Shown here in pieces: positions 4,237 to 64,000 of a stretch of 64,000 nucleotides of DNA. Below the pieces are notes generated by a model. It was not told the DNA's origin, searched no databases, and was given only the letters and a program-made list of their open reading frames with translations. This DNA comes from a virus (lineage: Duplodnaviria; Heunggongvirae; Uroviricota; Caudoviricetes). Both the position numbers and the translations under genes were made by a program. The number at the start of each line of letters is the position of its first letter. Within the stretch, counting starts at the first letter, position 1. The DNA is taken from the IMG/VR virus record IMGVR_UViG_2693429668_000006. The stretch is one strand, 5' to 3'.

Positions 4237-5565
4237 ATGCAACTAACAATGGTAAGTACGAGAGCATACATGCCTGTTTTTATTTCTGTTGCAATTCTAA
4301 TGTTTTCCATAATAATTTTGTTTTTAGGTTTACTACTTGAGCCATTTCAAGATTGGAAGGTTACAGACCAAATTGCTGTATTGAGTAGTTTTATAACGAC
4401 AGCGGCTTTTTGTGCAACAGCGTGGAACGCCTATGAAGCAAGAAAAAGTGCAAAGGCAGCACTGGAGGCCGTTAGGATAACTACCGATTCATTGATTGAG
4501 ATGAGAAAAAATTCTTTCAAAGAATGGTTTGACACTTTATTAAATCAGCATGATGAGTTGTACAATAATGTCATACCAATCATTGAACAGACAAAAAAAC
4601 AATTTAATAAAAATGAAATGCATTCGTTTTTTTATCCATTGGTAAGAAAGCATGAGGTTATTCAGTACATAAAACATATTACCAATATATTAGTCTATGT
4701 AGATAACCGATTTTACATAGATGGAAATTGTTTTGATGAAAAAATGGAATATATTATTCAATTGAGTGGAAAAATACCACCGCAAATGAAGTTGGTTATT
4801 GCAGTTTTTGGATTGGACATCGATTCTCGTGAACCGCTGGATTCAAAAAAACTGTATGCTTTATTAAATAAATATGATTTTTTCAAAGATGAAATATTCT
4901 TTGATGATGCTTATTCAAGCATGCCTGAAGTAGAGCTATTTATAAAGGATAGATTTGATAAAATATTTAAAACCAAGATGTTAAAATACTTTTGGAACGT
5001 GATTAAGGAATATTATTCTCAAGTTGAAGTCAAAGAAATCTGGGTGGTTCGTCGTCCGCAAGTTGCTTCATCGGTATTAATGAACTACCAAACACCATTA
5101 TCTGGTTTAATTGATGATTATTTTAAAAATTTGCCAAATGAGGTAAAGAGCATTTTTGATGAAGCACTAAAAAAAGCTAATGATAGTGTTACGTCTATTG
5201 ATGACTATATTCATCGTTTGATCGGTTGCAGAGTCGCGTCGATTTCAGAGCATGTCCATTTCGAAAGTGAAATACTGAGTAGTGAAAAGGATGTGAAGGA
5301 TATGATTAAAAATTACATAGAGCAAAGAAAAACTGGAAAAAATGCGGTAAATCTTGGGCAGTTATATTTCTCGAGTGAGTCAGATGTAATTACAGGTGAT
5401 CAGTTGAGTGATGCGATCGATGAATATGAGAAAAAGTTGGCACTTATGGCAATAAACGATAATGATGATAGTGATAACCTATTGTGCCATATCTATATTA
5501 AATCATGTGAGATAGTTGATGAATATAAGCGTGAAACATTAAAATTGGGCGAGTACGCACAATAG
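4237..5565 (+). CDS. hypothetical membrane protein (two N-terminal TM helices, about 380 aa cytoplasmic domain), AT-rich
   Basis: Long ORF in strongly AT-rich DNA; hydrophobic segments PVFISVAILMFSIIILFLGLLL and IAVLSSFITTAAFCATAW. Confidence 0.55.
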   Translation: MQLTMVSTRAYMPVFISVAILMFSIIILFLGLLLEPFQDWKVTDQIAVLSSFITTAAFCATAWNAYEARKSAKAALEAVRITTDSLIEMRKNSFKEWFDTLLNQHDELYNNVIPIIEQTKKQFNKNEMHSFFYPLVRKHEVIQYIKHITNILVYVDNRFYIDGNCFDEKMEYIIQLSGKIPPQMKLVIAVFGLDIDSREPLDSKKLYALLNKYDFFKDEIFFDDAYSSMPEVELFIKDRFDKIFKTKMLKYFWNVIKEYYSQVEVKEIWVVRRPQVASSVLMNYQTPLSGLIDDYFKNLPNEVKSIFDEALKKANDSVTSIDDYIHRLIGCRVASISEHVHFESEILSSEKDVKDMIKNYIEQRKTGKNAVNLGQLYFSSESDVITGDQLSDAIDEYEKKLALMAINDNDDSDNLLCHIYIKSCEIVDEYKRETLKLGEYAQ

Positions 5566-6664: not shown

Positions 6665-6751
6665 TGGCGGAGAGTAATGGAATCGAACCATCATCGTTTG
6701 CACAATGGGACGGTTTTCAAGACCGCTTGAGCACCATGCTCCCTACTCTCC
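6665..6751 (-). tRNA. tRNA-Ser-like (anticodon UGA), type II, 87 nt
   Basis: Acceptor GGAGAGT/ACTCTCC, anticodon loop CTTGAAA, T-loop TTCGATT, 3' GCCA; hand-folded, D-arm not fully resolved. Confidence 0.5.
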
Positions 6752-7045
6752 AATTGTGTTGTGTGCTCCGTTTCGTGGAGCTAACGGCGGGTGATCAGAC
6801 CGCACCAGGTTGGACGTATTTCAGCGTTATGCTGTTGCAAGAGAGCCAAATTGTGATGGCCGGTGCTGATCTCCGGCATTGCCTACGTTAGCGGCCTTCA
6901 GGCAGTTCATCCGCTTGCTTCTACGTCGCACATCAGCCTGTGCATTCACCACAATGTTGAGAACACTGGTTGTCACGCTGCAACGCAACATTATATTCAT
7001 AAATTGGGATATGAACCCGTTACGCCAATGTTCTCAATATTATGT

Positions 7046-7121
7046 TGGTGCCGGTTAACGGACTTGAACCGCTGGCCATTTGCTTACAAAGCGACTGCTC
7101 TACCAACTGAGCTAAACCGGC
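7046..7121 (-). tRNA. tRNA-like, possibly tRNA-Thr (UGU), with imperfect anticodon stem (possible pseudo-tRNA)
   Basis: Good acceptor (GCCGGTT/AACCGGC), D-arm and T-arm, 3' ACCA, but anticodon stem GTCGC/GCAAA pairs at only 3 of 5 positions. Confidence 0.4.
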
Positions 7122-7125
7122 AATT

Positions 7126-7212
7126 TGGTGGGGAGTGATGGAGTCGAACCACCCGAGTCGCAATGACAGTAGATTTACAGTCTACACCGCTACCTCTACG
7201 GACTAACTCCCC
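7126..7212 (-). tRNA. tRNA-Tyr (anticodon GUA), type II, 87 nt
   Basis: Acceptor GGGGAGT/ACTCCCC, anticodon stem-loop GTAGA-CTGTAAA-TCTAC, long variable arm, T-loop TTCGACT, 3' ACCA; differs from host tyrT. Confidence 0.6.
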
Positions 7213-7217
7213 TAAAT

Positions 7218-7292
7218 TGGCGATGGTGGGTGGATTCGAACCACCGATCAGTTGGTTAACAGCCAACTGCTCTACCGCTGAGCTACACCATC
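7218..7292 (-). tRNA. tRNA-Asn (anticodon GUU), 75 nt
   Basis: Canonical cloverleaf: acceptor GATGGTG/CACCATC, D-arm GCTC-AGCGGTA-GAGC, anticodon stem-loop GTTGG-CTGTTAA-CCAAC, T-arm GGTGG-TTCGAAT-CCACC, 3' GCCA; sequence differs from host tRNA-Asn. Confidence 0.75.
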
Positions 7293-12298: not shown

Positions 12299-13552
12299 AT
12301 GAAACTCATAAAACCTTCATCGTTGCTGGCATTAGCTTTGCTTTTCGGCCCTGGATACGTTAACGCAGATAATAAACAAACGCTGATCGACGCCGCCACC
12401 GCAGGAGATACCACAGCACAAAGTGCGTTAGGGACAAATTATTTGGATGGGGCTAATGGCTTTGATGAGGATTTAGTAGAGGCCAAGAAGTGGATCGATC
12501 TCGCCGCAGAAAAGGGAGATAAAGTAGCATATTATGCGCTTGGGGTTATGTACACAATTGGGAAGGGAGTAGATAAAGATCTAAATAAGGCCGTTGAGTA
12601 CTACAAACTAGCAGGAAATGCTCGCAACGGCAGTGCTTACCATAATCTTGCCGTTATATACGAACGAGGTTGGACTGGAAAGGAGGACCCAGAAGCTGCT
12701 TTAAAATATCACAAACTAGCAGTAGAAGCTGGTGATATACCTTCGCTTGCCTATATGGGATATTTATATCAATACGGTAAGGGAGTTCCGAAAGATTACA
12801 AGAAAGCATTTAAATCTTATAAAAAGGCTGCGGATAGTGGAAATGCCGCAGGAATGTATGGGCTAGGCTCTATGTACGACGATGGTGTTGCTGTTAAGCG
12901 CAACAATAAAGAGGCAATTAAGTGGTACTTGAAAGCAGCTGAATTAGGAAATAATAACGCCATGAGCGCGCTTGGATACAAGTTGATGCATGGAGAAGGT
13001 ATAAAAAAAGACTATTCGAAGGCCAGAAGTCTTTTAGAACAAGCAATCAGCTTAGGAAATGATTATGCCATGAACCACCTTGGTTACATGTATCTTAAGG
13101 GATTGGGCGTCAAACAGGATTATCGGAAAGCATCAGAGCTTTACCAAGCTGCTTGCGATAAAGATGACGAAACGGGCTGCGAAAACGTTGCTGCAATGAA
13201 AGCAAAAGGTACGTTCCGTTCGCCTTCAAAACAGCAAAATGCCAAATCTGACACTCAGCGACTTATTGCTAAATCCATTGATAAAGGCGTTAACGCAACA
13301 TTTACCTGGCAGGGTGATGATGCCGTCTTCACCGCTAATGATGGCAAAGTTGACTGCACCTTCTTGAAGGATTTTTCAGAGAAAGGAGGCAATCTGGCTA
13401 CCTCGTTTGTTTGCACCGATAACGTTCAAATCATCCTGAAGCAATTCAGAGATACCAAGAATGCCTACCTCGCGGTAATGACTGACAACTTCAACACAGA
13501 AGTTAAATCATTTTCGGTCAATGTTTACGTGACTAATACTGGTTCAAACTAA
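12299..13552 (+). CDS. secreted Sel1-repeat (TPR-like) protein
   Basis: Signal peptide MKLIKPSSLLALALLFGPGYVNA; repeated A-x-Y-x-L-G-x-M-Y-x-x-G-x-G-V-x-x-D/K units typical of Sel1 repeats; plus-strand island among minus-strand genes. Confidence 0.6.
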   Translation: MKLIKPSSLLALALLFGPGYVNADNKQTLIDAATAGDTTAQSALGTNYLDGANGFDEDLVEAKKWIDLAAEKGDKVAYYALGVMYTIGKGVDKDLNKAVEYYKLAGNARNGSAYHNLAVIYERGWTGKEDPEAALKYHKLAVEAGDIPSLAYMGYLYQYGKGVPKDYKKAFKSYKKAADSGNAAGMYGLGSMYDDGVAVKRNNKEAIKWYLKAAELGNNNAMSALGYKLMHGEGIKKDYSKARSLLEQAISLGNDYAMNHLGYMYLKGLGVKQDYRKASELYQAACDKDDETGCENVAAMKAKGTFRSPSKQQNAKSDTQRLIAKSIDKGVNATFTWQGDDAVFTANDGKVDCTFLKDFSEKGGNLATSFVCTDNVQIILKQFRDTKNAYLAVMTDNFNTEVKSFSVNVYVTNTGSN

Positions 13553-17104: not shown

Positions 17105-17112
17105 ATAATCTA

Positions 17113-18819
17113 TTAATGATTGAGTATTTTATTAACACGCAGCTTATTAAGTGTTGATTTTGAAGCAACTTCCTCCAAAGCTTCTATTGCTTTATCAGTG
17201 ATGCTCTTCTGTTCGTCTGTCGGGTGTTGCATACCCTTGAACTTGAGCATAGTCTCTTCTACTAAATTCAAAGCATCCTGATCACAGGATAATATCCAGT
17301 TTACGTAATCATCTTTAGAAAAACTGTTAAGAATATTCACATCACTATGGTTAAATCTTCCACCAGCTATTTTTTTTATAATTTTATCTAAGTTATAGTC
17401 ATCTGGATTTCTATCTTTCAATTTTTTTTCAATTCTGAAACCTAATTCTTCATTTCCGAAGATCTCTACTCGCAAAGAATTAAATGTAGCATACGCATTG
17501 TCTTTATTAACAAAAGCATCTGCATATGCCTCTATAATATTATTACAATCTCTATCCAATTTGATTAGGACATTTATTAAACCTACGAACTGTCCAATTG
17601 GTATACGCAACAGACTATCGTTAATTACGCGCTCAATTTGAAAAATAAACTCTGATTCATTATCTTTAAAAGAGTTTCTAAAAACATCCCAAATTTTATA
17701 AACCTCACATAAAACCCTATTATCTCTATATTGTTCATTTTTTTCTTTTATTATATTTAGAATATTGCTTTCAGAAGACACATAACCGTTCTTAAGGTAA
17801 AAATCTATATCATCATCGAAAGCACTTTCTGCTCGTTCATAAATAATATCAAGGCTATTAACAAATGAATATACAGAGTTAACTTCTTCCTTTTCATCTT
17901 TATCATCTAACATATAGTCGAATGCATGTATATTTTTGATTGACTCCTTAAATGAAGCATAATCAACGCTAGGAACACCAAAATAGTAAACCACTGAAAA
18001 TAAGACCAATCTATTAATAAAACTTTCTCTAACCTTATCCTCTGCTAACTTTAGCACATCTCTAAATATAACTAGAGATGATTTTATTTTATTTAATATT
18101 CTAATGTTTTTGATGTTTAAATCATTTGCTAGGTTTTTTAACAAAAGAAAATCAGGGTCAGTCTCATAAAAAACTTTTCTTAAGTTTTTCTCAGGCGTGG
18201 GATCGTATTTTATTTCCACATCAATTATTTTTTCTCTATACTCTAAAAACTGTTGTTGTGCAGTTTCTTCATGTAAGTTATCTTCATTTAATATTAGAAC
18301 AACCTTGCAATTTTTTCTTCTTGCCAACTCATCAATTACCCCCATAATCTCTTTAATTTCTAGCGCACTACCTTTTCGTTCAATATCATCAATGCAAACC
18401 AAATAATTATTAACAAATTTATACTCAAGAGATGACAGCAGATTATCAGTTTTGAACCCAAAAAAATCGTTCTTTCCAAAATGTATTAAAAATTTTGACA
18501 AGGAGTTGTATTTCAACCATCCCCAAAACCCATTTCTATAACGAATCATAGTTCGATCCGTTTCAGATAAAATCAGTTCTTTATATTTCTTTTCATTAAT
18601 TGGTGTGGCACAATGATAAAGAGCTTTTTTAATGTCTCCAATAGAATTTATTCCAAACAAAGAAACATATGAATATGCATTAAAATCTAATTTTTTAGAA
18701 TGTTTAGTATAAAAGCTATTCCAATAATGCGTTTTACCTACTCCCCAATTTCCTTTTATGACAGCAACCCGATGATCTGAGTCCAAAAAATTTTTTAAAA
18801 ATACTTCTATCGATTCCAT
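17113..18819 (-). CDS. KAP-family P-loop NTPase (candidate defence or abortive-infection protein)
   Basis: N-terminal Walker A KGNWGVGKTHYW matches KAP signature GxWGxGK[ST]; 568 aa; strongly AT-rich relative to neighbours. Confidence 0.55.
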   Translation of the reverse strand: MESIEVFLKNFLDSDHRVAVIKGNWGVGKTHYWNSFYTKHSKKLDFNAYSYVSLFGINSIGDIKKALYHCATPINEKKYKELILSETDRTMIRYRNGFWGWLKYNSLSKFLIHFGKNDFFGFKTDNLLSSLEYKFVNNYLVCIDDIERKGSALEIKEIMGVIDELARRKNCKVVLILNEDNLHEETAQQQFLEYREKIIDVEIKYDPTPEKNLRKVFYETDPDFLLLKNLANDLNIKNIRILNKIKSSLVIFRDVLKLAEDKVRESFINRLVLFSVVYYFGVPSVDYASFKESIKNIHAFDYMLDDKDEKEEVNSVYSFVNSLDIIYERAESAFDDDIDFYLKNGYVSSESNILNIIKEKNEQYRDNRVLCEVYKIWDVFRNSFKDNESEFIFQIERVINDSLLRIPIGQFVGLINVLIKLDRDCNNIIEAYADAFVNKDNAYATFNSLRVEIFGNEELGFRIEKKLKDRNPDDYNLDKIIKKIAGGRFNHSDVNILNSFSKDDYVNWILSCDQDALNLVEETMLKFKGMQHPTDEQKSITDKAIEALEEVASKSTLNKLRVNKILNH

Positions 18820-18870
18820 TGGTGTCTATCCTTCAACTCATATATTGGGCGTAACAAACGCCCAATATAA

Positions 18871-19230
18871 TCACCCTTTCTTCATCAACTCGCGTTTAAT
18901 TTCATCGGTACGCATCGTGACATCGGCAGCTGTGATCGCCTCGTTAAGTTTCACGATGTCCTCGATTTCCTGCGGTGTCTTCTCCGCAAGATGGAAAATA
19001 GCAGCACGAATCACGTCAGAACGAGTGAACTTCTCGAAGCGAGGGATGAACTTCATCATCTCCAGCAGTTCGAAGTATTCGTCCTCCAGTGACATTGTGC
19101 GGCTTTTAATTTTCTCTTTGCCACGAGTCGGGCGTCCCTGTGGTCTGACTGGTTGGCGCAAAGGAGTTGTGTTCTTAGCCGGTGCATCAGGCTCTTTGCG
19201 CTTTGCTAGGTCACCCATTTTCATGGACAT
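18871..19230 (-). CDS. small partition protein (ParG-like ribbon-helix-helix centromere-binding protein)
   Basis: 119 aa, immediately downstream of ParA with overlapping start/stop; RHH-like C-terminal segment. Confidence 0.45.
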   Translation of the reverse strand: MSMKMGDLAKRKEPDAPAKNTTPLRQPVRPQGRPTRGKEKIKSRTMSLEDEYFELLEMMKFIPRFEKFTRSDVIRAAIFHLAEKTPQEIEDIVKLNEAITAADVTMRTDEIKRELMKKG

Positions 19231-19898
19231 TATTCTTCTTCCTCCAGACTCAACAGATAATCTACAAATTCTTCAAACTCGGCTTCCGCCTTTTTGTCGC
19301 GCTCGCTACCGGTCATTTCAAAGATAGAACGACCAGACTCTTCCGCATCATCATAGACGTTGCGGTTATATAGATTGACTGGCGCAGACTCGATGCCAAA
19401 CGTCTCAACAATCTCTTTAGCCGCCAGAATGCGAGACACTTGTGATGGCAAAGCCGGGCACTGGTTCATGACCGCGCGGACCTTCACTTTATCGTTTACA
19501 TTACGAACATTGTCGATAATAGGATCGATGTCACGCAGAGATTTCAAATCACGACGCTTAGGACGAAGCGGGATAATGATAACGTCGGCCATCAGCATCG
19601 CTTGTCGCTGAATTTCGGAGTCAAAGCCACCAGCATCTACCACTACAAACTCAGCTCTACCCTGAAGCGATTTTAGGTGCTTAATGATGTCATCCTGAAC
19701 GTATGCAAAAGGAATCAGCTCAAGGTCTTCGTTCTGTCGACGGTCTTCACACCAGCTTGTTGTCGTGCGCTGAATATCTATATCAGTGATATAAACCTTC
19801 TTCTTCTTTTTGACTTTCAGGCAAACGGCAATTTGCTGGGCAACGGTGGATTTGCCAGGCCCGCCCTTTGTGCCGCCAACCACAAAGATCTTGGTCAT
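19230..19898 (-). CDS. ParA-family partition ATPase
   Basis: Deviant Walker A VVGGTKGGPGKST at N-terminus; 222 aa. Confidence 0.75.
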   Translation of the reverse strand: MTKIFVVGGTKGGPGKSTVAQQIAVCLKVKKKKKVYITDIDIQRTTTSWCEDRRQNEDLELIPFAYVQDDIIKHLKSLQGRAEFVVVDAGGFDSEIQRQAMLMADVIIIPLRPKRRDLKSLRDIDPIIDNVRNVNDKVKVRAVMNQCPALPSQVSRILAAKEIVETFGIESAPVNLYNRNVYDDAEESGRSIFEMTGSERDKKAEAEFEEFVDYLLSLEEEE

Positions 19899-19933
19899 TG
19901 GAGAGTTCCCTTTGCGTCTATTATTATCGTCTG

Positions 19934-19950
19934 AAACAACTTGTTTTCTT
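19934..19950. promoter_or_regulatory. operator-like palindrome AAACAACTTGTTTTCTT upstream of parA
   Basis: Recurring AACAAnTTGTT motif; adjacent palindromes GTACGGTGATATGCCGTAC and GGCTATAGCC in the 19898..20178 intergenic region. Confidence 0.4.
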
Positions 19951-20216
19951 ATATGTGATATAGCCTAAATGCCTACGGCTACGGTGTAAAGGTTAAATGG
20001 TAGGTTGTGGTTAACAATTGGCAATCATAGCTTGTATTTGTCTGTTGAAAAAAGTAACAATGACCTCTATATTACAAGTACGGTGATATGCCGTACACAA
20101 TTTGATAATGCACACGTAATGGGCTATAGCCTTTTAAAGTAATTTTTGAGTCGAAAACTCAGTTTGAACAGAGGAGATTGATGGCCTTCCTACATCACGG
20201 CCATCAGGAGGAATAC

Positions 20217-20486
20217 ATGTCAGCACTAAAAAAGCAGCGCATCGATTTGAGATTAACCGATGACGATAAAAGCATCATCGAGGAAGCTGCCGCAATGTCT
20301 AACCAGAGCATTACTCAGTTTATGGTTAGCAGTGCATCTGAACGTGCCGTGAAAGTTATAGAGCAACACCGTAGACTAGTTCTGAATGAAGAATCCTGGA
20401 ATCTGGTTATGGACGCTATAAGCAATCCTCCGGCACCGAACGACAAGCTGAAACGAGCTGCTGATCGTCTGAAAAGCATGGAGTAG
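20217..20486 (+). CDS. DUF1778 / TacA-like antitoxin
   Basis: 89 aa, MSALKKQRIDLRLTDDDKSIIEEAAAM...NPPAPNDKL; SD AGGAGG before ATG at 20217; immediately upstream of GNAT gene. Confidence 0.65.
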   Translation: MSALKKQRIDLRLTDDDKSIIEEAAAMSNQSITQFMVSSASERAVKVIEQHRRLVLNEESWNLVMDAISNPPAPNDKLKRAADRLKSME

Positions 20487-20493
20487 TTTACTC

Positions 20494-21015
20494 GTGAGCA
20501 ATACAACGATAGAGATTTTCTCTGGAGAGAAAGATTATGATCTAAACGGTTTTGATTGCGGCGAAGAGTCACTAAACGCCTTTTTAGCCAACCACTTAAA
20601 AAGGCAGCATGAGGGAAAAATTCTTCGTGCTTATGTGCTTTGCACTCAAGAAGAAAGGCCAAAAGTGTTAGGATATTACACTTTGTCAGGTAGTTGTTTT
20701 GAAAAGGAGTCCTTACCTTCAAGAAGCAAACAAAAGAAGGTTCCTTATCGGAATGTTCCAAGTGTTACTTTGGGTAGGCTGGCTTTGGACAAGTCCCTTC
20801 AAGGTCAAGGATTTGGCTCAATGCTTGTAACACATGCAATGCGCGTTGTGTACAATGCATCTCTTGCTGTAGGCATTCATGGACTTTTCGTTGAGGCGTT
20901 AAATGACAAAGCCAAGGCGTTTTATAAAAGTTTAGGCTTTATCCAGCTGGTTGGTAACAACGAGCGTTCTTTGTTCTATCCTACAAAATCTATCGAAAAA
21001 TTGTTCGAAGAATAA
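20494..21015 (+). CDS. GNAT-family acetyltransferase toxin (TacT/AtaT-like)
   Basis: 173 aa GNAT fold with ...LQGQGFGSMLV... acetyl-CoA motif; paired with DUF1778 gene; GTG start. Confidence 0.65.
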   Translation: MSNTTIEIFSGEKDYDLNGFDCGEESLNAFLANHLKRQHEGKILRAYVLCTQEERPKVLGYYTLSGSCFEKESLPSRSKQKKVPYRNVPSVTLGRLALDKSLQGQGFGSMLVTHAMRVVYNASLAVGIHGLFVEALNDKAKAFYKSLGFIQLVGNNERSLFYPTKSIEKLFEE

Positions 21016-21047
21016 TGTGTTCCCCTCATTTGAGGGGAACTTCGACA

Positions 21048-21233
21048 TCACCAACCACAAACCCTCTCTCCCATCGTATTGTGAAAAAGGATTTGGCGTT
21101 CGGTTTCTTCAGTCATTACATCATTATTGCTGATATAGATAGGCTCAGCCCCATCGCAGAACAACACGCTGGCTGTTTGTGGTTTAATGACGCACCCACT
21201 TATCATACAACTCACGATGAACGGCAGAAGCAT
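21048..21233 (-). CDS. possible o-spanin (Rz1-like lipoprotein) overlapping 3' end of i-spanin-like gene
   Basis: Lipobox-like CMISGC; out-of-frame overlap with 21184..21435; weak, not proline-rich. Confidence 0.3.
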   Translation of the reverse strand: MLLPFIVSCMISGCVIKPQTASVLFCDGAEPIYISNNDVMTEETERQILFHNTMGERVCGW

Positions 21234-21435
21234 CTTTCTGACGTATTTTACTGCTCGTCTCATTCACCACTTTCACTGTGTTTTGAAGTCGTTTTCTGTC
21301 TTCCTGTTTTGCCTTCTCTTCCATTGCTCGTCGCGCCGCATTCCCGCCCATCGTGTAAGCGCCGACAAGAACGAAAAGAACGGCAGCCAGCGTAATCAAA
21401 GCAACTTTTAGCTTTGTCATCAGGCTGCCTAGCAT
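21184..21435 (-). CDS. possible i-spanin (Rz-like)
   Basis: N-terminal TM anchor LKVALITLAAVLFVLVGAY followed by charged coiled-coil-like region. Confidence 0.35.
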   Translation of the reverse strand: MLGSLMTKLKVALITLAAVLFVLVGAYTMGGNAARRAMEEKAKQEDRKRLQNTVKVVNETSSKIRQKDASAVHRELYDKWVRH

Positions 21436-62861: not shown

Positions 62862-64000
62862 TTACTTAACCTGGTGGCCAGGTTTAGCACCAGCATCCGG
62901 GCTTAACAGGAAGATATCTTTCCCACCGGGGCCAGCAGCCATCACCATACCTTCGGAGATACCGAAGCGCATTTTACGCGGAGCCAGGTTAGCCACCATA
63001 ATGGTGTGACGACCAATCAGTGCCTGTGGGTCTGGATAAGCAGAACGGATGCCTGAGAAGACATTGCGTTTTTCACCACCTAGATCCAGCGTCAGACGCA
63101 GCAGTTTGTCAGAGCCTTCAACAAACTCCGCGTTTTCAATCAGCGCCACGCGCAGGTCAACTTTGGCGAAGTCATCAAAGGTGATGGTTTCCTGAATCGG
63201 ATCGTCTGCCAGCGGGCCAGTAACTGGCGCGGCAGTGGCTTTCACTTCTTCTTTAGAGGCTTCCACCAGTGCTTCAACCTGCTTCATGTCGATGCGGTTA
63301 TACAGTGCTTTGAACGGATTAACTTTGTGCGCCAGCAGCGGTTGCTGGATACCATCCCAGGTCAGTTCTGTATTCAGGAATGCTTCTGCACGTTCAGTCA
63401 GTTTCGGCAGTACCGGCTTCAGGTACGTCATCAGCACGCGGAACAGGTTAATGCCCATAGAGCAAATCGCCTGCAGATCGGCATCGCGTCCTTCCTGCTT
63501 CGCCACCACCCACGGAGCCTGTTCATCGACATAGCGGTTAGCCAGGTCAGCCAATGCCATGATTTCACGGATAGCTTTACCAAATTCGCGGCTTTCCCAT
63601 GCTTCGCCAATCACTTCAGCGGCATCAGTAAAGGTTTTGTACAGTTGCGGGTCAGCCAGTTCGCTTGCCAGCACGCCGTCAAAACGCTTGTTGATAAAGC
63701 CTGCATTACGGGAGGCCAGGTTAACCACTTTGTTCACGATATCGGCATTCACGCGCTGAACGAAATCCTCCAGGTTGAGATCGATATCATCAATGCGCGA
63801 AGAGAGTTTCGCAGTGTAGTAGTAACGCAGGCTGTCAGCGTCAAAATGATTCAGCCAGGTGCTGGCTTTAATAAAGGTGCCGCGAGACTTGGACATCTTT
63901 GCGCCGTTCACCGTCACATAGCCATGAACAAACAGGTTGGTCGGCTTGCGGAAGTTGCTGCCTTCCAGCATGGCAGGCCAGAACAGGCTGTGGAAGTAAA
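62862..64000 (-). CDS. metG: methionyl-tRNA synthetase, C-terminal part (5' end beyond window)
   Basis: Translation ends ...[23 protein letters not shown] and matches the enterobacterial MetG anticodon-binding and C-terminal tRNA-binding domains. Confidence 0.9.

Follow-up and report, generated by a model that had tools for sequence, protein, structure and literature searches.

An AtaRT/KacAT-clade toxin-antitoxin operon as accessory cargo beside the partition genes of an SSU5-like Escherichia coli phage-plasmid

What does a pair of small genes beside the partition locus of a phage-plasmid do for the element that carries it? The question is raised by a 64,000-nt stretch of DNA (IMG/VR record IMGVR_UViG_2693429668_000006, Caudoviricetes), referred to here as the window, in which a sequence-only reading had proposed a TacA/TacT-type toxin-antitoxin (TA) pair next to parA with a role in addiction or defence. 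Our analysis suggests that the pair is probably a functional type II TA operon belonging to the AtaRT/KacAT clade, that an SSU5-like E. coli phage-plasmid carries it as accessory cargo, and that its likeliest role is the post-segregational arrest or killing of cells that lose the element. The locus is real, ordinary and already known, and the family to which it belongs has been characterised both structurally and biochemically. In Escherichia phage Cyrano, the two genes (CYRAN_26/27) are annotated as “KacT acetyltransferase-type toxin” and “putative antitoxin”, and RefSeq plasmids, pLF82 and p09EL50 among the annotated copies, carry the labels “TacA family antitoxin” or “GNAT family N-acetyltransferase”. 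The locus was named and listed as a prophage moron by Misson et al. 2023, and none of the matches listed in a literature search combined “phage-plasmid” with AtaT/KacT-type toxin names.

Both proteins have close relatives of known structure. In Pfam, the antitoxin was assigned to PF08681 (TacA1, DUF1778) with E=5.7e-26 and 90.7 bits against a cut-off of 21, and the toxin matched generic GNAT domains only (E=5e-8); an NCBIfam search of the toxin gave no specific model above cut-off. In a comparison with all PDB chains, the toxin aligned over its full length with AtaT of E. coli O157:H7 (6GTS_A, E=1.4e-79; structures 6GTS/6AJM) and with KacT of Klebsiella pneumoniae (5ZGN_C, E=3.9e-75), the other GNAT toxin chains listed, including TacT (5FVJ), giving values of 1e-11 to 1e-21 and one further acetyltransferase chain 5e-4. 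The antitoxin aligned end to end with KacA (5ZGN_A, E=6.6e-42) and AtaR (6AJM_C, E=1.3e-40), and its residues 44-88 matched a C-terminal peptide of AtaR co-crystallised with AtaT (6GTQ_C, E=6.3e-17). The toxin is 69% identical to O157 AtaT over its whole length with no internal gap; for the antitoxin, the identity is 76% with AtaR and 80% with KacA (residues 1-87). Judged by these scores, all four full-length alignments (KacA, AtaR, AtaT and KacT) are far beyond chance. The architecture recognised at the outset, a DUF1778 ribbon-helix-helix (RHH) antitoxin followed by a GNAT enzyme, is borne out by the PF08681 hit, the GNAT domains and the full-length matches to AtaRT/KacAT.

The assignment to a TacA/TacT type stands as far as the aminoacyl-tRNA-acetylating family is concerned, but it does not extend to TacAT proper. 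TacA-TacT of Salmonella Typhimurium shares the superfamily and the architecture, and the Pfam family of the window antitoxin is even named TacA1; however, TacA-TacT is much more distant (E of 1e-11 to 1e-20, versus roughly 1e-75 to 1e-79 for AtaRT/KacAT, with AtaT itself at about 1e-79). By alignment, the pair belongs to the AtaRT/KacAT clade and not to Salmonella TacAT proper, the superfamily being shared and the clade different. Because these E-values and the identities of 69-80% lie far nearer to AtaRT/KacAT than to TacAT, the alignments also assign the pair to the group called “clade A” by Bikmetov et al. 2022 (PMC9177977). The clade A members tested in that study, AtaT, KacT and AcaT, acetylate Gly-tRNA plus several hydrophobic aminoacyl-tRNAs in vivo, and not Gly-tRNA alone, whereas TacT-type toxins are specific for Gly-tRNA in vivo (PMC9177977).

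Residues on which function depends in the relatives are largely retained. Yashiro et al. (PMC7595197) provide 18 toxicity-lowering residues of AtaT: G108 (acetyl-CoA), Y144 (catalysis), H34, R37, R40, R71, S76, K77, S78, K79, K81, K82, R95, F30, Y85, and the pocket residues A26, L27 and L136. When the window toxin was aligned with O157 AtaT, 14 of the 18 were identical (Y144, G108, L27, F30, H34, R37, S76, S78, K79, K81, K82, Y85, R95 and L136), R71K and K77R were conservative exchanges, and R40E and A26S differed. The acetyl-CoA loop, sought as the pattern Q/R-x-x-G-x-G/A ending in G108, is present as Q103-G-Q-G-F-G108, together with the catalytic F143-Y144-K145. The tRNA acceptor-stem contacts S76, S78, K79, K81, K82, Y85, R95, H34 and R37 are kept, but R40 is not, and the motif S76-x-S78-K79, which has been called AtaT/KacT-clade-specific (PMC7595197), is retained.

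In the antitoxin, residues R8, D10 and R12, the positions with which KacA contacts DNA (PMC6698736), are invariant relative to AtaR and KacA. M65 and I68 are conserved as well, and position 70 is N, as in AtaR; a KacA triple mutant, M65A/I68A/Q70A, fails to neutralise KacT (PMC6698736). The alignment thus indicates that the C-terminal toxin-binding region is present. Apart from Q70 and R77 of KacA, which are N70 and K77 in the window antitoxin as they are in AtaR, the differences from KacA-KacT concern the host genus and the replicon.

An entirely different reading, that of an ordinary non-toxic GNAT enzyme accompanied by a plain RHH regulator, with no TA system at all, would fit the direct family hits of the toxin, which consist of generic GNAT Pfam domains with no specific NCBIfam model above cut-off. 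We nevertheless consider it very improbable, given a full-length identity of 69% to a proven toxin, the preserved catalytic and tRNA-binding residues, a co-conserved antitoxin, and the presence of the operator typical of the family (see below).

The gene layout is that of a bicistronic TA operon. The antitoxin gene comes first and is followed, after a 7-nt gap, by the toxin gene on the same strand, each with its own Shine-Dalgarno (SD) sequence: AGGAGG at 20206..20211, 5 nt upstream of the ATG of the antitoxin gene, and GGAG at 20480..20483 for the toxin gene, immediately followed by the antitoxin stop codon TAG (20484..20486). The open reading frame (ORF) list and the sequence agree on both ORFs as originally called (Table 1). 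The start of the feature at position 20178, by contrast, had to be abandoned, as it is merely the TTG start of a mechanically derived ORF. The 13 extra codons are non-coding, because AtaR and KacA begin at the residue matching position 20217 and because a 1-nt insertion in the pCUVET18-789.1 variant (91% identical) shifts the upstream ATG out of the antitoxin frame, breaking the extension. An antitoxin start at TTG 20178 or ATG 20181, as in the Cyrano annotation, was rejected since AtaR, KacA and the crystal constructs all begin at the equivalent of 20217, and the strong SD sequence further rules it out. The chromosomal AtaR-AtaT locus of E. coli O157:H7, located between livJ and panM, has the same gene order with a gap on the same 7-nt scale, and shares with the window pair Y144, G108, S76-x-S78-K79 and the sequence GTACGG-N7-CCGTAC after the -10 element. 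It differs in that the window copy lies on a phage-plasmid and not on the chromosome, in a DNA identity of 66%, in the toxin start codon (GTG in the window versus ATG), and in the R40E and A26S exchanges of the window toxin.

The predicted promoter upstream of the antitoxin gene is the best promoter-like site of the region, with 10/12 matches, and the region around it can be aligned with the promoter region of chromosomal ataRT in E. coli O157:H7. The putative operator palindrome just downstream of it (Table 1) occurs once in the window, with 0.01 occurrences expected by chance. O157 ataRT carries GTACGG-TGACATA-CCGTAC at the equivalent position after its -10 element, and GTACGG-N7-CCGTAC following a -10-like element was also found, with varying spacers, in homologues on two IncF plasmids and one K. 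variicola plasmid, and in two other phage-plasmid variants. It was not found within 230 nt upstream of the Citrobacter phage-plasmid variant. The palindrome bound by KacA4KacT2 and by AtaR4AtaT2 extends across the start site (PMC6698736, PMC8138530), and, by sequence, that of the window likewise overlaps the expected transcription start of its own promoter.

The leader between the operator and the start codon is about 95-140 nt long in plasmid-borne copies versus about 25 nt in chromosomal ataRT; in the window, at 20100..20216, it exceeds the chromosomal leader by about 115 nt and contains a stem-loop adjoining the SD sequence. This stem-loop contains a perfect 8-nt inverted repeat and has a 9-bp stem in the predicted RNA fold. 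Other plasmid-borne homologues have leader hairpins of different sequence at the equivalent position, abutting the SD sequence. The stem-loop was considered as a conserved regulatory structure and rejected, since only two of seven folds were clearly unlike those of shuffled sequences (z-scores were mostly non-significant), and one of these two belonged to the chromosomal ataRT leader, whose stem is the operator palindrome itself. An Rfam search of 19700..21400 gave nothing near any gathering score. At the other end of the operon, the hairpin between the convergent stop codons has a 9-bp stem with six G-C pairs and a T-rich tail on the minus strand; it scores as a terminator of the lysis operon, and the plus strand presents a hairpin without a T run.

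Plasmid pLF82 and many E. coli plasmids of about 105-117 kb match the TA region at 100% identity; phage Cyrano, which is the same 108,379-bp element as pLF82, matches it at 99.7%. The annotation of Cyrano describes a complete phage of siphovirus type that also has genes for plasmid replication and partition. The window is an SSU5-like phage-plasmid of E. coli, and the plasmid-like lifestyle that had been suspected, as well as the position beside a partition locus, were found to be correct: parA (19230..19898, minus strand) is the divergent neighbour of the TA operon at a distance of 318 bp.

The TA pair is swappable accessory cargo between parA and the lysis genes. In a blastn comparison of the window with SSU5, homology covered 18870..20005 and resumed at 21056 inside the 3' end of the Rz1 gene, so that a 1050-bp cassette stands in place of a 1426-bp SSU5_031/032 segment. 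SSU5_031/032 gave no Pfam hits. A Klebsiella relative has one 185-aa ORF without assigned function in the same slot, and the Citrobacter relative pRHBSTW-00127_3 (L007, 2611..3408) has a related pair there, with an antitoxin 88% and a toxin 62% identical to those of the window. The right junction (21055/21056) lies within the 3' end of the o-spanin ORF Rz1 (21048..21263, minus strand), and the last Rz1 codons therefore differ between the window element and SSU5.

Table 1. Positions in the window of the TA operon, its control elements and the neighbouring features
Feature	Position	Strand	Description
Predicted sigma-70 promoter	20045..20073	+	-35 TTGAAA 20045..20050, 17-nt spacer, -10 TATATT 20068..20073
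Putative operator palindrome	20078..20096		GTACGGTGATATGCCGTAC (GTACGG-TGATATG-CCGTAC); starts 5 nt past the -10 element and spans the expected transcription start
Leader stem-loop	20179..20206	+	TGATGGCC / GGCCATCA; ends at the SD sequence
Antitoxin gene	20217..20486	+	ATG start, 89 aa; predicted AtaR/KacA orthologue with N-terminal RHH and C-terminal toxin-wrapping region
Toxin gene	20494..21015	+	GTG start, 173 aa; predicted AtaT/KacT orthologue, GNAT aminoacyl-tRNA N-acetyltransferase
G+C-rich hairpin	21019..21040		Separates the toxin gene and Rz1, whose convergent stops are at 21015 and 21048; terminator-like
Whole TA cassette	20006..21055	+	No SSU5 homology; flanked by the conserved region upstream of parA and the conserved 3' part of Rz1
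Partition operon	18871..19898	-	Small ParA ATPase 19230..19898 and 119-aa partner 18871..19230; outside the TA cassette
KAP-family P-loop NTPase	17113..18819	-	568 aa; Pfam PF07693 E=6.6e-6; PADLOC PDC-S49 E=2e-21

The cassette follows one plasmid lineage. PLSDB contains 145 plasmids with the cassette and about 212 with the window parAB, both at an identity of at least 90%; that is, roughly two thirds of the E. coli lineage of SSU5-like plasmids carry it. In complete E. coli genomes, 152 plasmids have the cassette at an identity of at least 90%, and at least 152 of the 155 E. coli records at 80% identity or more are plasmids. The plasmid matches overall are a mix of non-mobilizable and conjugative replicons, the SSU5-type ones being about 105-117 kb in size, and the sources of the cassette plasmids include humans, pigs, dogs, soil and manure. 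Conjugative IncF plasmids commonly have more distant homologues, of about 68% DNA identity, beside repB.

Both genes are maintained by purifying selection, since the ORFs are intact in three phage-plasmid variants, between which the Nei-Gojobori dN/dS is 0.06-0.18 for the toxin gene and 0.04 for the antitoxin gene. Family-wide conservation is higher in the antitoxin (76-80% identity to AtaRT/KacAT) than in the toxin (69%), whereas type II TA pairs usually show the reverse. The toxin copy of p09EL50 (L004, 4225..4746; E. coli O104:H4 2009EL-2050) has the substitution G148D inside the conserved Y144-K-S-L-G-F motif and further changes clustered at residues 2-5 and 52-54, and this allele may be attenuated.

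How might such an operon act? For toxicity, tRNA targets, antitoxin lability and a stabilising role, we infer the following course of events. As in the characterised homologues, a single promoter would give a bicistronic mRNA, on which the strong AGGAGG/ATG start of the antitoxin gene, compared with the weaker GGAG/GTG start of the toxin gene, would ensure an excess of antitoxin. Two antitoxin dimers flanked by two toxin monomers (A4T2) would bind GTACGG-N7-CCGTAC over the transcription start and keep the operon repressed, and the C-terminal region of the antitoxin would wrap the toxin, blocking both acetyl-CoA binding and toxin dimerisation. In the family, the antitoxin does block these two steps, and the hexamer represses with conditional cooperativity (PMC6698736; PMC8138530); the W-shaped A4T2 repressor of KacA-KacT and its conditional cooperativity would be expected of the window pair by homology (PMC6698736). 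Once the plasmid prophage is lost or transcription is halted, the labile antitoxin would be degraded, as Lon degrades the antitoxin of GmvAT (PMC6519299), and the freed toxin would dimerise and, using acetyl-CoA and Tyr144, acetylate the alpha-amino group of charged tRNAs, thereby stopping translation. The likeliest targets would be Gly-, Trp-, Tyr-, Phe- and initiator Met-tRNA, as for AtaT and KacT. That peptidyl-tRNA hydrolase relieves the toxicity of clade A toxins suggests that the targets that matter are elongator tRNAs (PMC9177977, PMC7595197). Cells losing the low-copy phage-plasmid would thus be arrested or killed, complementing the adjacent ParA partition system.

An addiction role of this kind is plausible because the element is a low-copy plasmid prophage, because the pair is transcribed during lysogeny (CYRAN_26 and CYRAN_27 at 35- and 60-fold over the prophage background; PMC9928086), because GmvAT offers a precedent, and because the IncF homologues lie beside repB. 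Plasmid records and the published transcription data agree with what is expected of an addiction module, namely a resident low-copy replicon and expression while resident, and post-segregational killing in particular is supported by the fact that the pair adjoins the partition genes. GmvA-GmvT of the Shigella flexneri plasmid pINV is likewise a GNAT/RHH type II TA system on a large low-copy plasmid with ParAB partition. It is a proven, Lon-dependent stabiliser of pINV and of a test vector, and hence a functional precedent for addiction (PMC6519299); however, the published tree and experiments separate GmvT from the AtaT/KacT clade (PMC9177977), and GmvAT works mainly at 21 °C. The phd-doc operon of the phage-plasmid P1 is also a type II TA system on a plasmid prophage, where it acts as an addiction module. 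Doc is a Fic kinase whose target is EF-Tu; the proteins and the target are unrelated to those of the window pair. Moreover, phd-doc is a persistent plasmid-type gene of P1-like phage-plasmids (PMC7969092), core in those elements, whereas the window pair is an accessory cassette in SSU5-like ones.

Several observations weigh against post-segregational killing as the main role: SSU5 and the Klebsiella phage-plasmids persist without the cassette, and it is therefore dispensable for the element; Cyrano also carries hicAB, so that any stabilising effect of the TA pair may be redundant; the R40E and A26S exchanges mean that the target preference may differ from that of AtaT; and of the 152 genomes with a plasmid copy, 50 also carry chromosomal ataRT, whose AtaR (76% identical and with a nearly identical operator) could cross-neutralise the toxin and blunt addiction in about one third of the hosts.

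The co-occurrence with chromosomal ataRT was determined by megablast with both loci concatenated against 5426 complete E. coli genomes. The 152 plasmid copies and 1626 chromosomal ataRT places, a few of which are remnants beside panM, were distributed over 1728 genomes, 50 of which had both. There was no signal of either avoidance or enrichment, 45.5 such genomes being expected under independence. Since the two systems have the same operator half-sites and the same residues for DNA contact, transcriptional cross-repression between them is a reasonable inference from sequence; cross-neutralisation, judged in the same way, is possible. In Klebsiella, one non-cognate pair among several cross-reacts (PMC9431474).

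The same shared operator bears on the idea of an inter-element weapon, in which the toxin would kill cells where an incompatible, TA-free SSU5-like phage-plasmid had displaced the resident one, and the pair may in addition cross-regulate with chromosomal ataRT. That the TA pair is present in only about two thirds of SSU5-like plasmids of the E. coli clade (145 versus about 212 with parAB), that related clades have other cargo in the slot, and that the half-sites and DNA contacts match those of ataRT would all agree with this idea. However, it is a variant of the addiction model that sequence data do not separate from it, and the TA pair is neither enriched nor depleted together with chromosomal ataRT (50 versus 45.5). 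We regard it as quite improbable.

A second variable slot lies on the far side of parAB (17110..18869) and is relevant to a defence function. In the window it is filled by a KAP-family NTPase; in Cyrano it holds an unrelated 804-bp gene, in SSU5 the genes SSU5_035-037, and in the Citrobacter relative a DUF2971 protein, and a P-loop NTPase is also present in p09EL50 and in a Klebsiella relative. If the TA pair acted in anti-phage abortive infection, a lytic phage that shuts off host transcription or attacks the antitoxin would free the toxin, which would block translation; the infected lysogen would then no longer sustain phage growth, to the benefit of the clonal population and the resident phage-plasmid. 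This reading would suit a pair that occupies a variable cargo slot and is expressed in lysogeny like other prophage morons; the KAP NTPase in the other slot matches a PADLOC candidate defence family (PDC-S49, E=2e-21), and tRNA-directed toxins are recognised as immune effectors (PMC12409363). We nonetheless find it rather unlikely. Neither TA protein matches any PADLOC model at E<=0.01, and although PADLOC-DB 2.0 covers described systems only, the absence of a match lowers the case for defence; in addition, the matches listed in a literature search included no report of a GNAT/DUF1778 pair protecting against phage, and the closest characterised relatives have been studied for growth arrest, persistence or plasmid stability. 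A broader version, in which the cassette would fill one of two exchangeable defence or competition slots flanking parAB and serve as a device for abortive infection or inter-element exclusion and not mainly for addiction, likewise seems doubtful to us. Were it true, the half-sites and DNA contacts shared with ataRT of about 30% of E. coli might allow cross-regulation or cross-neutralisation, and host genotype would decide the loss of the phage-plasmid.

One more possibility is a lysogenic-conversion (moron) function for the host, in which stochastic or stress-triggered toxin would produce non-growing cells tolerant of antibiotics or macrophages, or would acetylate a host protein. KacT overproduction induces antibiotic tolerance (PMC6698736, PMC9431474), TacT has been linked to Salmonella persisters in macrophages, AtaT is reported to acetylate EspB and so to raise the virulence of enterohaemorrhagic E. 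coli (EHEC) (PMC7957018), and the Cyrano host LF82 is a macrophage-surviving strain (PMC9928086). However, the persistence phenotypes come mostly from overexpression, and the distribution of the cassette tracks one mobile-element lineage and not host pathotype, given the range of its sources (humans, pigs, dogs, soil and manure among them). We hold this function to be improbable.

The discovery value of the locus is small, and its modest value lies in its context: parAB of the SSU5-like phage-plasmids is flanked by two cargo slots; an AtaRT-clade TA pair is usual in the widespread E. coli lineage of these elements; and a third of E. coli strains have a chromosomal ataRT that shares its operator with this pair. 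Such a combination makes a clean natural system for studying cross-talk or anti-addiction between chromosomal and phage-plasmid TA pairs.

Of the neighbouring genes, ParA matched ParA_partition in NCBIfam (E=1.9e-33, 115.7 bits), below the curated cut-off of 180, and passed the Pfam cut-offs for MipZ/AAA_31/CbiA/ParA; the partition operon is 86% conserved with SSU5. The 119-aa partner, whose gene overlaps the parA stop codon, gave a weak match to an RHH-type NCBIfam model (aCcr1, E=2e-4) and no Pfam hit. The label “RelE/ParE putative toxin” that Cyrano bears for the gene after parA was rejected, as it has no Pfam or NCBIfam support; more likely, the gene encodes a ParG-like centromere-binding partner of a type Ib ParA.

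Two features of the window touch upon tRNA. Four tRNA genes lie at 6665..7292 (minus strand), namely Ser(TGA), Thr(TGT), Tyr(GTA) and Asn(GTT), and Cyrano is without the Tyr gene. AtaT requires the G4-G6 run in tRNAfMet, and Tyr-tRNA is one of its substrates (PMC7595197); in the element's tRNA-Tyr, the acceptor-stem pairs A5-U68 and U7-A66 interrupt this run. A more remote idea is that this tRNA-Tyr, with its broken run, might escape the toxin, but Cyrano carries the same TA pair and no tRNA-Tyr, and the link stays speculation. The 3' part of a methionyl-tRNA synthetase (MetRS) paralogue lies at about 62870..64000 (minus strand) and ends at the window edge, the full-length gene being CYRAN_100 in Cyrano. 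A connection between it and the toxin (Met-tRNAfMet is one AtaT substrate) was rejected, since PhiR41_1 has MetRS without the TA pair and SSU5 has neither.

Further cargo without a Cyrano counterpart consists of a 442-aa ORF at 4237..5565 (plus strand), which matched nothing in Pfam or PADLOC, and a gene at 12299..13552 (plus strand) for a 417-aa Sel1-repeat protein (PF08238, E=5e-56).

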